Shown: positions 12,758-63,191 of the stretch, one piece after another | How the letters are laid out: each line of letters begins with the position of its first letter | Position numbering within the stretch: the stretch's first letter is position 1 | NCBI GenBank assembly: GCA_002420145.1 | Contig: DIHL01000021.1 | Span: 13,112 to 77,111 of the forward strand | Source: Bacteroidetes bacterium UBA5697 | Lineage (GTDB): Bacteria; Bacteroidota; Bacteroidia; B-17B0; Aurantibacillaceae | Direction: 5' to 3' | Length of the DNA stretch: 64,000 bases | Program-made: the position numbers and the translations under genes | Notes under the pieces: model-generated | The model's input: only the letters and a program-made list of their open reading frames with translations | Told to the model about the DNA's origin: nothing | The model's database searches: none

Positions 12758-12784
12758 GTCACTTCGAGCGAAGTCGAGAAGTGT
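12758..12784 (+). repeat. Family A GC-rich repeat arm (GTCACTTCGAGCGAAGTCGAGAAGTG)
   Basis: The same 23-25-mer, or its complement, recurs at 24303, 42609/42653, 48624, 59680/59724 and partly at 63142. Confidence 0.85.
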
Positions 12785-20260: not shown

Positions 20261-20794
20261 ATGGCTTTTATCTTACCCGTTAATGGAATTGAACCTAGTT
20301 TAGGAAAAAACACCTTTGTAGCTCCTAATGCAACTATTGTTGGCGATGTGATTTGTGGTGACGATTGCAGCTTTTGGTTTAATGCCGTAGTTCGTGGCGA
20401 TGTAAATTCTATTCGTTTAGGAAATAAAGTTAACATTCAAGATGGAGCAGTCATTCATTGCACTTATCAAAACCTGCCTGCCGGTCAGGCAGGAACAAAA
20501 ACCATTCTAGGTAATAATGTATCTGTTGGGCATAATGCCATTGTGCATGGCAGTTTGGTTCACGACAATGTATTAATTGGCATGGGCGCTATTGTGATGG
20601 ATAATTGCGAAATTGGCTCAAACTCTATTATTGCAGCAGGTGCCGTATTAACAGAAGGCACTAAAGTGCCAAGTGGATGTATTTATGCTGGTGTACCTGC
20701 CAAAAAGGTAAAGGATATCTCTGAAGAATTAATTAATGGCGAAATCAATAGAATTGCCAATAATTACTTAATGTACAGCACTTGGTTTAAATAA
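20261..20794 (+). CDS. Gamma-carbonic-anhydrase-like left-handed beta-helix protein (hexapeptide repeat; YrdA/PaaY-like)
   Basis: 177 aa. The motifs are FVAPNATIVGDV, WFNAVVRGDVNSIRLGNKVNIQDGAVIH and VGHNAIVHG. Confidence 0.8.
   Translation: MAFILPVNGIEPSLGKNTFVAPNATIVGDVICGDDCSFWFNAVVRGDVNSIRLGNKVNIQDGAVIHCTYQNLPAGQAGTKTILGNNVSVGHNAIVHGSLVHDNVLIGMGAIVMDNCEIGSNSIIAAGAVLTEGTKVPSGCIYAGVPAKKVKDISEELINGEINRIANNYLMYSTWFK
20473..20493 (+). repeat. Family C GC-rich palindrome (CCTGCCTGCCGGTCAGGCAGG) inside the gamma-CA-like CDS
   Basis: Perfect 8-bp stem with a 5-nt loop, 21 nt long, so it preserves the frame. It encodes PAGQAG. It is 17/21 identical to an intergenic copy at 63122-63142. Confidence 0.75.
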
Positions 20795-24302: not shown

Positions 24303-24351
24303 TTCTCGACTTCGCTCGAACTGACATGTTACTTCGTGTGAAGTCGGAAAG
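24303..24351 (-). repeat. Family A repeat (complement-orientation arm plus a degenerate second arm)
   Basis: TTCTCGACTTCGCTCGAACTGACA is followed by TTACTTCGTGTGAAGTCGGAAAG. It lies between convergent genes. Confidence 0.8.
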
Positions 24352-42608: not shown

Positions 42609-42675
42609 GTCACTTCGAGCGAAGTCGAGAAGCGTTCTATAAATCTTTGTGTTCTCGACTACGCTCGAACTGACA
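42609..42675 (+). repeat. Complete family A element (two ~23-nt inverted arms around a ~20-nt spacer)
   Basis: GTCACTTCGAGCGAAGTCGAGAA ... TTCTCGACTACGCTCGAACTGAC. The arms are complementary except at 2 positions. The structure matches 59680-59748. Confidence 0.88.
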
Positions 42676-48613: not shown

Positions 48614-49783
48614 TTATAACGTATTCTCGACTTCGCTCGAACTGACAGAAGAATAATCCTTAACGATATTGTATAAAGTATCTCTTTCTACCGGTGTACG
48701 TTTCACTTGAGTAATTAAATCAACTAATTCCTGAGTAGTTAGTTTTGGATTTTGTTCCTCAGCACCAGCCATACTATAAATTTTTGTTGTATCATCAATG
48801 GTTCCATCCATATCATCTACTCCAAAATTTAAAGACAATTGAGCAGTGCTTCTTCCAATCATTGCCCAATAAGCTTTTATATGATCAAAATTATCTAAGT
48901 AAATTCTGCTAATGGCATAATTTCTTAAATCTTCTATCACACTTACTTCAGGCACATCCGACATATCATTATTTCCATTTCTAAATTTCAAAGGAATGAA
49001 CGCATTAAAGCCTTTTGTTTTATCTTGTAACTGACGTAATCTTTCTAAATGATCTACACGATGTGCGAACGTTTCTATGTGTCCGTACAACATCGTCGCA
49101 TTTGATTGCATTCCCATGCCATGCCAAATTTCATGAATGCTTAACCATTCTTCGGCACTACATTTTCCACCAGCAATTTTATCTCTAATTTCTTTATCAA
49201 AAATTTCGGCGCCACCACCAGGCATCGAATCTAAGCCTGACTCTTTCAATAACTTCATACCTTCTTCGTAAGTTACTTTAGCTTTTTTAAAGATATAATG
49301 ACATTCTACTGGGGTTAATGCTTTTACATGCAAATCAGGACGATGAGTCTTAATTGCTTTGAATAAAGACGTATAAAAAGTTAAATCTTGTTTTGGAATA
49401 ACACCACCTGTAATATGAACTTCGGTAACATGTTGTCCATCATATTTTTTAATCAAGTCCATCATTTGCTCAATGGATAATTCCCAACCTTCTTCGCGTT
49501 GTTTTATTAAACGAGAATAAGCACAAAACGAGCACGTGTAAACACAAATATTTGTTGGTTCAACATGAAAGTTGCGATTAAAAAAAACAAAATTCTTGTT
49601 CTTTTTTTCTCTTACATAATTAGCTAAAGTGCCTAAATAAGAAAGATTAGCATGCTCATATAAATAAACACCTTCATCAAAGGTAATACGTTCGCCTTTA
49701 AATACTTTTTTAGCAATGTTTTTTAATTCATTACTTAATTGAGAAGATTGTAATATTAATTGTTCAGGGTTTTCTAAAATCAT
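48614..49783 (-). CDS. Radical SAM enzyme of the futalosine menaquinone pathway (MqnE/MqnC, CofH-like)
   Basis: The CxxxCxxC cluster is NICVYTCSFCAY. The 389-aa length and overall sequence resemble aminofutalosine synthase. The last ~9 codons and the stop come from a family A repeat. Confidence 0.7.
   Translation of the reverse strand: MILENPEQLILQSSQLSNELKNIAKKVFKGERITFDEGVYLYEHANLSYLGTLANYVREKKNKNFVFFNRNFHVEPTNICVYTCSFCAYSRLIKQREEGWELSIEQMMDLIKKYDGQHVTEVHITGGVIPKQDLTFYTSLFKAIKTHRPDLHVKALTPVECHYIFKKAKVTYEEGMKLLKESGLDSMPGGGAEIFDKEIRDKIAGGKCSAEEWLSIHEIWHGMGMQSNATMLYGHIETFAHRVDHLERLRQLQDKTKGFNAFIPLKFRNGNNDMSDVPEVSVIEDLRNYAISRIYLDNFDHIKAYWAMIGRSTAQLSLNFGVDDMDGTIDDTTKIYSMAGAEEQNPKLTTQELVDLITQVKRTPVERDTLYNIVKDYSSVSSSEVENTL
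48624..48648 (-). repeat. Family A repeat arm embedded in the 3' end of the Mqn-type CDS
   Basis: TTCTCGACTTCGCTCGAACTGACAG. On the coding strand it reads S-V-S-S-S-E-V-E-N. Confidence 0.85.
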
Positions 49784-59679: not shown

Positions 59680-59748
59680 GTCACTTCGAGCGAAGTCGAG
59701 AAGCGTTATTAAACTTCTTTTTTGTTCTCGACTCCGCTCGAACTGACA
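59680..59748 (+). repeat. Complete family A element (second full copy)
   Basis: GTCACTTCGAGCGAAGTCGAGAAGCGTT...GTTCTCGACTCCGCTCGAACTGACA. The architecture is the same as 42609-42675. Confidence 0.88.
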
Positions 59749-62843: not shown

Positions 62844-63121
62844 TACGCTAATCGCTATTTGTCAAGTGTTTTATAAAAAAAAGTGCTGGTTTTGTTAATA
62901 AAACGGCACTTTGTTAATAAATATGCCCTGTATCTCTATTATAATGGGACTTTCGCCTCCAACAAATCTCTAAAATGTCTAATAATAACCCTTTTCAACC
63001 CTCAATAAGTGTGATTTACTATTAATAAAGCGTTTACTATATATAAGTATACCTTATATAATATGTACATATATATACGTAAAGAAATTCTTGTTATTAT
63101 TTTTCATTCACTTCTCTACTC

Positions 63122-63155
63122 CCTGTCTGCCGACAAGGCAGGCGCTCGAAGTGAC
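63122..63155. repeat. Chimeric repeat: family C palindrome fused to a truncated family A arm
   Basis: CCTGTCTGCCGACAAGGCAGG is 17/21 identical to 20473-20493. It overlaps by one base (63142) with GCGCTCGAAGTGAC, the complement of GTCACTTCGAGCGC. The element lies just downstream of fmt. Confidence 0.7.
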
Positions 63156-63191
63156 ATGCCTTGAAATGCAGTAATAACAAACAATTACAGA

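Follow-up and report, generated by a model that had tools for sequence, protein, structure and literature searches.

A gene for a gamma-carbonic-anhydrase-like (gamma-CA-like) protein carries, at 20473-20493 of the window, 21 nt that nearly all of its orthologues lack. The window is the whole stretch of DNA analysed here, 64 000 nt long (13112-77111 of contig C3), and its source genome, G000, from a Chitinophagales-like member of the Bacteroidia, comprises 95 contigs and 3.53 Mb. We read these 21 nt as a copy of a very small hairpin-forming DNA unit, itself non-autonomous, that entered an uninterrupted gene and, judging from sequence comparison, we give this explanation as a whole a probability of roughly 0.6. 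The unit would enter DNA as a hairpin or at one, and a cut-and-fill or copy-in step would add only the unit itself. Within ORFs, selection would then keep only copies of length 3n in a phase free of Cys and stop codons. Less certainly, a GIY-YIG cassette would supply and move the hairpin, and the D-loop-like loop of a second repeat, E1, would be its preferred nest.

The hairpin and its host protein

The unit (E2, Q-type; forward strand) reads CCTGCCTGCCGGTCAGGCAGG, which resolves into CCTGCCTG-CCGGT-CAGGCAGG, a perfect 8-bp stem closed by a 5-nt loop. Its G+C content is 76% (16/21), compared with 32.3% for the genome. Folded as single-stranded DNA, the site gives -9.6 kcal/mol with a z value of -6.0, and none of 200 shuffles equals it. 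A second copy of the family, the E1-type 21-mer CCTGTCTGCCGACAAGGCAGG, lies between genes at 63122-63142 on the forward strand and matches the first at 17 of 21 positions. Scanning the window for the unit with up to three mismatches gave no further match, and none is expected by chance (0 in 100 shuffles). An Rfam search of the whole window at the gathering threshold returned one tRNA and nothing for E1 or the 21-mer; thus, neither is a curated RNA family.

The host ORF (20261-20794, forward strand) is intact and encodes 177 amino acids, which Pfam and PDB comparisons assign to the gamma-carbonic-anhydrase-like, left-handed beta-helix proteins with hexapeptide repeats. The Pfam Hexapep match has an E-value of 8e-20, and the PDB matches are gamma-CAs, the best of which (9gva, 4e-54) aligns with a gap of seven residues at the insert. 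His66, His91 and His96, which we take to be the metal ligands from what is known of the gamma-CA family, are invariant among 44 orthologues. The insertion point lies between the second and third bases of a Lys codon (AA^A becomes AAC ... GGA), by which Lys70 is changed to Asn and the insert forms residues 71-77 (LPAGQAG). An earlier note on this DNA had described a GC-rich perfect 8-bp palindrome, a 17/21 intergenic copy and an in-frame position encoding N-LPAGQAG-T; the composition, the sequence of the second copy and the ORF translation agree with it on all three points. The note had also suggested a structure model as a check for a surface loop. In the AF2 model, residues 67-80 form a coil between the beta-helix strands 64-66 and 81-83, and the pLDDT of block 71-80 is 56, compared with 76 and 85 in the neighbouring blocks and a mean of 68 for the whole model. 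The insert is therefore placed in a coil between two beta-strands, and the length of this loop differs among the solved homologues. We infer that this surface loop, which is variable, tolerates the seven residues as a passenger.

Filled and empty sites in orthologues

Among 30 orthologues from 41 related genomes, the gene is 531 nt long in G000 and in G008 alone, whose proteins are 98% identical, and 507-510 nt long in the others. The short proteins read ...HCTYQK-TKT... at the position where the filled ones read ...HCTYQN-LPAGQAG-TKT.... At the DNA level, the empty target region is TATCAAAAAACAAAAAC; the site itself reads TATCAAAA^AACAAAAAC, to which the filled allele adds precisely 21 nt. 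Exactly these 21 nt are missing in 28 of the 30 orthologues of related genomes and in 78 of 80 from named genomes, a set made up mainly of Chitinophagaceae-type genomes and unclassified Bacteroidia MAGs; overall, the site is empty in 104 of 108 orthologues. The loop in homologues had been given in the earlier note as about seven residues shorter, and the alignment that it proposed finds precisely these seven codons to be extra. Comparison of the filled and empty alleles revealed no target-site duplication at the gamma-CA insertion, since the number of A residues is the same in both. The short loop is found in every other family of the class and in the closest solved structure, 9gva, so the short form is ancestral. 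The alignments of orthologues thus show that the 21 nt are an exact, derived insertion into a formerly uninterrupted gene.

The G008 copy at this site, CCTGTCTGCCGGACAGGCAGG, differs from that of G000 at two positions. Decayed seven-codon inserts are also found, in frame at the identical place, in two orthologues that are more distant: TTAGCGGCCGGTCAGCCCGGT (NLAAGQPG) in L075 (80% identity) and CTTGCAGCAGGTCAACAAGGA (NLAAGQQG) in L082 (77%). Chimeric reads can yield short palindromes; however, with an independent genome filled at the same site in a slightly different sequence, and with decayed in-frame copies at the same place in two further genomes, the chance that the insert is an assembly or sequencing artefact is negligible. 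To place the four filled genes, a maximum-likelihood gene tree was calculated from 106 orthologues with the insert columns left out; the gene is short and the tree partly resolved. The filled genes do not form one clade in it. L082 groups with an empty-site sister (support 100/94), and L075 lies within a different empty-site clade. The well-supported branches require at least three gains or losses and so show, at the level of the gene tree, that the gamma-CA position changed between filled and empty three or more times, in separate lineages. The filled sites of G000 and G008 may well share one event.

Copies elsewhere in the genome

The inserted sequence had been proposed to be a dispersed repeat, and a search of the genome finds it so, with copies both inside CDSs and between genes. 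With up to four mismatches, 25 21-mers were found in G000; together with 11 20-nt versions (CCTGCCTGTCGGCAGACAGG type), all of which are intergenic, the family has about 36 copies in 3.53 Mb. About a quarter of the 21-mers (7-8 of 25) lie in ORFs, and the seven in long ORFs all share one frame, LP[AST]G[KQ]AG. Apart from the gamma-CA-like gene at 20261-20794 of the window (C3), the hosts are a conserved protein of ~260 amino acids (C4), a T9SS substrate, in its C-terminal sorting domain (C6), a beta-barrel protein of the outer membrane, in which the insert directly follows the signal peptide (C21), the Lys-rich tail of an adenylate kinase (C22), a multi-pass membrane protein (C35) and the Lys-rich tail of a NUMOD4/HNH protein (C47).

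We compared the in-ORF sites with those of five close relatives; the Lys-rich tails on C22 and C47 are too repetitive to align. Five of the sites are empty in close relatives. For example, the C4 site is filled in G000 alone and is empty (GGTGA^TAAAAAC) in all five relatives, although the proteins are 97-99% identical; judged by this comparison, the C4 site was filled recently. On C6 and C21, both G000 and G008 have the insert, and four relatives have the empty site. At the C35 site, G000 has the perfect consensus, G005 and G013 have decayed copies and three relatives are empty.

Codon phase and the fate of inserted copies

The same peptide recurs outside G000. In genomes G112, G176 and G102, ~20 of ~24 copies in long open frames are in the LP..AG phase. 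Among the cross-phylum matches listed for the K-type, 30 of 58 in-frame copies encode LPAGKAG and 11 encode PALPAGR, which is the sole other Cys-free frame of this type. For the Q-type, 49 of the 60 in-ORF copies among the matches listed are in phase 2, 22 of them in one orientation and 27 in the other. The Q-type is nearly symmetric, and its other phases contain TGC (Cys) or, in one case, a TGA stop. The two orientations are equally common and yet one phase prevails; together with the restriction of in-ORF copies to 3n versions, this points to selection on the encoded peptide. We infer that inside genes only 3n-long copies survive, in the Leu-Pro-x-x-(Lys/Gln)-Ala-Gly phase, and that the peptide reflects this filter. 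A frame-aware insertion mechanism was considered and rejected, given the equal use of both orientations of a near-symmetric unit in one codon phase. The insertions have a purine at -1, and those of the K-type are A-rich on the 3' side. A target in a Lys-rich, exposed segment probably helps.

Once inserted, the copies appear to change freely. In the three inserts shared by G000 and G008, 9 of 63 positions differ (14%), compared with 191 of 1437 (13%) in the flanks; concerted evolution or DNA-level conservation of the inserted copies was rejected on this equality. The older copies (L075, L082, G005 and G013) have lost the stem. These comparisons show that the copies drift like ordinary DNA after insertion and decay towards AT. 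They also bear on the idea that the seven codons or the RNA hairpin are a selected feature of the gene, either as a peptide motif or as an mRNA structure tuning translation or stability. The intact ORF and perfect hairpin in G000 would suit such a role, as would the recurrence of an identical peptide in many proteins. Nevertheless, it is very unlikely: 104 of 108 orthologues do without the insert, orthologous copies lose the stem, inserts diverge as fast as their flanks, and identical DNA, whose codons are GC-rich in a genome of 32% GC, turns up in intergenic regions and in other phyla as well as in unrelated genes.

Nesting in the E1 repeat

E1 is a repeat of ~26 nt with ~100 copies, TGTCA-NNNN-GAGCG^NAGTCGA-N'N'N'N', and has a conserved 12-nt loop. 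The stem (4-5 bp) differs among copies and yet stays complementary (gttc/gaac, cttc/gaag, cact/agtg and ccct/aggg). As a stable hairpin, E1 is unsupported, with a folding z of about 0. The genome census gives ~94 plain E1 copies in G000, and the E1 loop cores of the window are at 12766, 24306-24317, 42617 / 42655-42666, 48627-48638 and 59688 / 59728-59739. At least 12 further E1 copies carry a 21-mer, exactly between GAGCG and NAGTCGA and in one orientation (12/12). The nested 21-mers are a slightly different variant, that of the second copy in the window, which occurs at no fewer than 12 loci of G000 besides 63122-63142 and always in E1. The copy in the window belongs to a composite on the reverse strand (63108-63156), tcacttc-tctactc-[21-mer]-cgctc-gaagtga-ca, which has TCTACTC where E1 has TCGACTC. 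Nesting of E1 in E1 is also present in G000.

A composite of E1 and the 21-mer is inserted in frame in panC (C49:22992-23036, 45 nt). At this site, G021 has a 24-nt E1 only, that is, the composite minus precisely the 21 nt, and four other genomes are empty; the 21-mer is thus a separate indel unit. The elements TGTCA...GAGYG...GTCGA of E1 match, in order, the 5' part and D-loop of tRNA-Ser, and from this likeness E1 may descend from a tRNA fragment. Around two GIY-YIG genes (C15:3300-4300 and C69:2800-3700), E1-like arms enclose a different palindrome, AAATTTGC-N9-GCAAATTT, and ACGCCNNGGCGT is found in several E1 left arms elsewhere. The variety of palindromes in E1 loops implies that several unrelated mini-palindromes nest in E1.

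Distribution across genomes and phyla

The unit is sporadic. It occurs in 6 of 53 genomes of the genus, with 19 copies in G000, 17 in G042 and 1-4 in the others. In the family, 24 of 185 genomes, from 5 of the 11 genera, have it, and three other genomes show bursts of 14-19 copies; the reversed-sequence control gave 0 in both surveys. Among species-representative genomes, at least 120 exact matches each were obtained for CCTGCCTGCCGGCAAGGCAGG, which is the commonest variant, and for the 21-mer of the window; by our arithmetic, chance would give any one 21-mer ~0.3 exact matches in 596 Gb. The matches listed come from Patescibacteria, Omnitrophota, Planctomycetota, Ignavibacteria, Nitrospirota, Acidobacteriota, Thermodesulfobacteriota, Spirochaetia, Proteobacteria and many Bacteroidota. 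The letter-for-letter identity across Patescibacteria, Planctomycetota, Acidobacteriota and Bacteroidota implies a shared source or enzyme. It is hard to square with free drift after insertion unless a conserved source reissues the unit.

Seven uncultivated viral contigs (IMG/VR) contain the exact unit, and a search of cultured phages gave matches at chance level only. In two of the IMG/VR contigs (L322:632-673 and L324:2003-2044), two 21-mers stand back to back in opposite orientation as a 42-nt dimer. At ~10 cross-phylum loci among the matches listed (L202, L211, L213, L214, L222, L231, L255, L291, L297 and L303), the exact 21-mer lies within tandem arrays of 7-nt repeats. The heptamers (GGAAATT, CGAAATT, CGGATTT, GAGATTT, GGACTTT and others) vary by genome and the hairpin is constant; some of these arrays fall in very long open frames.

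Candidate movers

G000 has eight small GIY-YIG genes of the tRNA-side type. At C70:4480-5014, a duplicated 5' part of tRNA-Ser is followed by a GIY-YIG gene and then by the intact tRNA-Ser; the duplicate holds a 20-mer in its D-loop, TGTCAGAGTG^GTCGAA. The GIY-YIG gene on C15 has a 20-mer 200 nt upstream, amid E1-like arms, that on C60 is flanked on both sides by inverted E1 copies, and that on C95 adjoins tRNA-Met and a tRNA duplicate with another GC palindrome. Seen from the nuclease, the link is strong: of 11 homologous GIY-YIG loci elsewhere, eight adjoin a tRNA gene and six have a family hairpin within ~70 nt. At three homologous nuclease loci a copy of the tRNA-Leu 5' part has the hairpin in its D-loop (GGTAGA^CGCGC), and at one the hairpin lies in the T-arm of a duplicated tRNA 3' part. 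The cassettes are found at tRNA genes for Ser, Leu, Met, Arg and Glu (C70; also L446, L448, L449, L450 and L454). An intact tRNA remains, together with a partial duplicate whose D-loop or T-arm contains a GC palindrome of 16-20 nt. In Christiangramia antarctica (L448), two cassettes stand in tandem.

From this association, the small tRNA-side GIY-YIG cassette is the most likely source and mover, an assignment that we make tentatively and at less than even odds. At the insertion point, the E1 loop (GAGCG^NAGTCGA) resembles the tRNA-Ser D-loop (GAGTG^GTCGAA), and E1 as the preferred nest would follow from this likeness. Seen from the solo 21-mers, the link is weak: a GIY-YIG gene lies within 8 kb at 9 of the 240 loci listed and within 250 nt at two, a density near the listed copies of ~2x background; the contig of the window, C3, has no GIY-YIG gene. 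Further against the assignment, most hairpins of the cassettes belong to the 20-nt TGTC...GACA variant, unlike the 21-mer of the window, and the in-gene targets (A-rich, with a purine at -1) are unlike the D-loop-like target of E1 and tRNA.

A wider reading is possible, though we consider it rather doubtful: the 19-21-nt hairpins would be a portable module of pan-bacterial GIY-YIG cassettes that parasitise tRNA genes. The nuclease would cut DNA that resembles a D-loop and also, with lower specificity, A-rich DNA; repair would then close the break with a precise hairpin copy. In this way one enzyme would seed tRNA duplicates, E1, heptamer arrays and, with identical 7-codon inserts, protein genes across phyla. 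If this were true, few mobile units known would be as small as these hairpins, and they would act as a general supplier of loop insertions to proteins.

Insertion of a single-stranded hairpin by a Y1 transposase (IS200/IS605-type, RAYT), which would make the unit a REP/REPIN-like element, is unlikely. Hairpin shape, small size and the lack of a target-site duplication are what is established for Y1 HUH enzymes (see also the REP survey, PMC3733652), and G000 encodes Y1_Tnp proteins (four matches). However, the complete RAYT-like Y1 gene of G000 (C35:39556-39900) is flanked on both sides by GCTCC-N4-GGAGC hairpins, some with a GTAG/CTAC loop, and not by E1 or the 21-mer. The 21-mer units have no GTAG or CGTC tag, and there is no conserved tetranucleotide 5' of the insertions, just the purine at -1. 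Moreover, Y1 ORFs lie near 0 of 120 and 1 of 120 listed cross-phylum copies of the two variants, that is, near 1 of 240. On the hairpin family at the G000 gene and on this count, Y1/RAYT was rejected as the mover. Together with its hairpins, the Y1 gene on C35 looks like an ordinary REP-RAYT pair that has nothing to do with the 21-mer; a further Y1 gene lies at the contig end, just past the window (C3:86024-86368). We also considered the 21-mer as the fused ends of a larger IS, and rejected this because G000 has no convincing pair of half-sites 30-6000 nt apart.

Spread by host repair and recombination with no dedicated enzyme, as discussed for yeast mitochondrial GC clusters, is likewise improbable. 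Its routes would be ectopic templated break repair, hairpin-primed synthesis and the passing of filled alleles from one related species to another. At three sites, G000 and G008 have filled alleles in common while not being clear sisters in the gene tree, the units merge and nest as in yeast mitochondria (PMC4478555), and most copies have no enzyme gene nearby, all as this account would have it. Nevertheless, recombination passes on filled alleles and cannot make an exact 21-nt insert at a new site without flanking homology; the same gamma-CA site was hit in distant lineages; and the fixed point and orientation in E1 (12/12) indicate a sequence-specific step. The insertion of a non-autonomous hairpin unit, with the GIY-YIG cassette as a concrete and testable candidate mover, remains our preferred reading.

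Comparison with known systems

If the preferred reading holds, the gamma-CA-like gene offers a clean and well-polarised one-step gain of seven residues from selfish DNA, with the empty site in more than 100 relatives, and the 21-mer stands at the lower size limit of mobile-like DNA. The survival of Cys- and stop-free frames only would give a simple account of why the same peptide recurs, for the Rickettsia elements as well. In practice, gene callers and aligners should allow for such units, which give rise to spurious ORFs and to false extensions at the N-terminus.

REPs of 20-40 bp, GTAG- and CGTC-tagged, have been catalogued inside ORFs (Di Nocera et al. 2013, PMC3733652). Like the 21-mer, they are small imperfect palindromes that are mostly intergenic, with a minority wholly in ORFs for known proteins, where they add a few residues in loops or linkers (PMC3733652). 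At 21 nt, with an 8-bp stem and -9.6 kcal/mol, the unit falls within the 20-40-nt range of stem-loop palindromes that defines REPs. In contrast to the tagged REPs (PMC3733652), no GTAG or CGTC is found in or directly beside the K-, Q- and E1-type units. REPs number at least 100 per genome and are overwhelmingly extragenic, whereas the present family has ~36 copies and about a quarter of its 21-mers in ORFs. No RAYT gene is flanked by 21-mers, unlike in REP/RAYT systems, and the hairpins at the Y1 gene on C35 are others. Finally, the 21-mer is identical across many phyla and nested at a fixed point of another repeat, which sets it apart from REPs.

The Rickettsia palindromic elements (RPEs) are ~100-150 bp long, restricted to Rickettsia and inserted in frame in functional genes (summarised in PMC10969869 and PMC3733652). 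The 21-mer shares with them a palindromic sequence, an in-frame position in unrelated genes and a constant encoded peptide, and its range of in-frame hosts is RPE-like: gamma-CA, a T9SS domain, an OMP barrel, adenylate kinase, NUMOD4/HNH, two unassigned proteins and PanC. It differs in its unit of 21 nt and seven residues, in its pan-phylum distribution and in a peptide that Cys- and stop-free frames can explain. The earlier note had suggested a Bacteroidota analogue of the RPEs. The in-frame insertion into unrelated genes stands, but an identical 21-mer in many phyla does not fit an element of the Bacteroidota; with 21 nt as against 100-150, the unit does not belong to the RPE family itself.

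The GC clusters of yeast and fungal mitochondria, likewise GC-rich palindromes, spread through a very AT-rich genome, turn over rapidly, merge and pass from species to species (Wu and Hao 2015, PMC4478555). The 21-mer resembles them as a GC-rich palindrome in an AT-rich genome (76% versus 32%), in its sporadic occurrence (6/53 and 24/185), in its turnover and crossing of species and in the nesting of its family in E1, tRNA duplicates and heptamer arrays. The clusters are organellar and a putative target-site duplication has been reported for them (PMC4478555), whereas the 21-mer is found on contigs of bacterial chromosomes and shows no duplication. A link to a tRNA-side nuclease cassette is not described in the GC-cluster paper (PMC4478555). 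Miniature (PATE-like) elements derived from IS200/IS605 insert 3' of a fixed tetra- or pentanucleotide and make no target duplication. Comparison with them gives a mixed picture: the unit has no target duplication, and its 5' flank has a purine at -1 and is A-rich, with no fixed word.

Small GIY-YIG ORFs by or in conserved (tRNA) genes, with a part-duplicated target and an intact gene left, are reminiscent of free-standing GIY-YIG homing genes. Classical homing copies the nuclease gene itself into the empty allele. Unlike this, if the link is real, a 19-21-nt hairpin would also be deposited alone at many unrelated sites. We found no description of such hairpin deposition by GIY-YIG genes in the searchable literature; a search for the 21-mer sequence and its peptide gave nothing relevant, and one for GIY-YIG, tRNA and palindrome led to fungal mitochondria only. 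In summary, elements of this kind are already in print as intragenic REPs, RPEs and yeast mitochondrial GC clusters, and the 21-nt unit lacks the defining features of each of these families; the parts that deserve follow-up are its identity across phyla and its link to tRNA-side nucleases.
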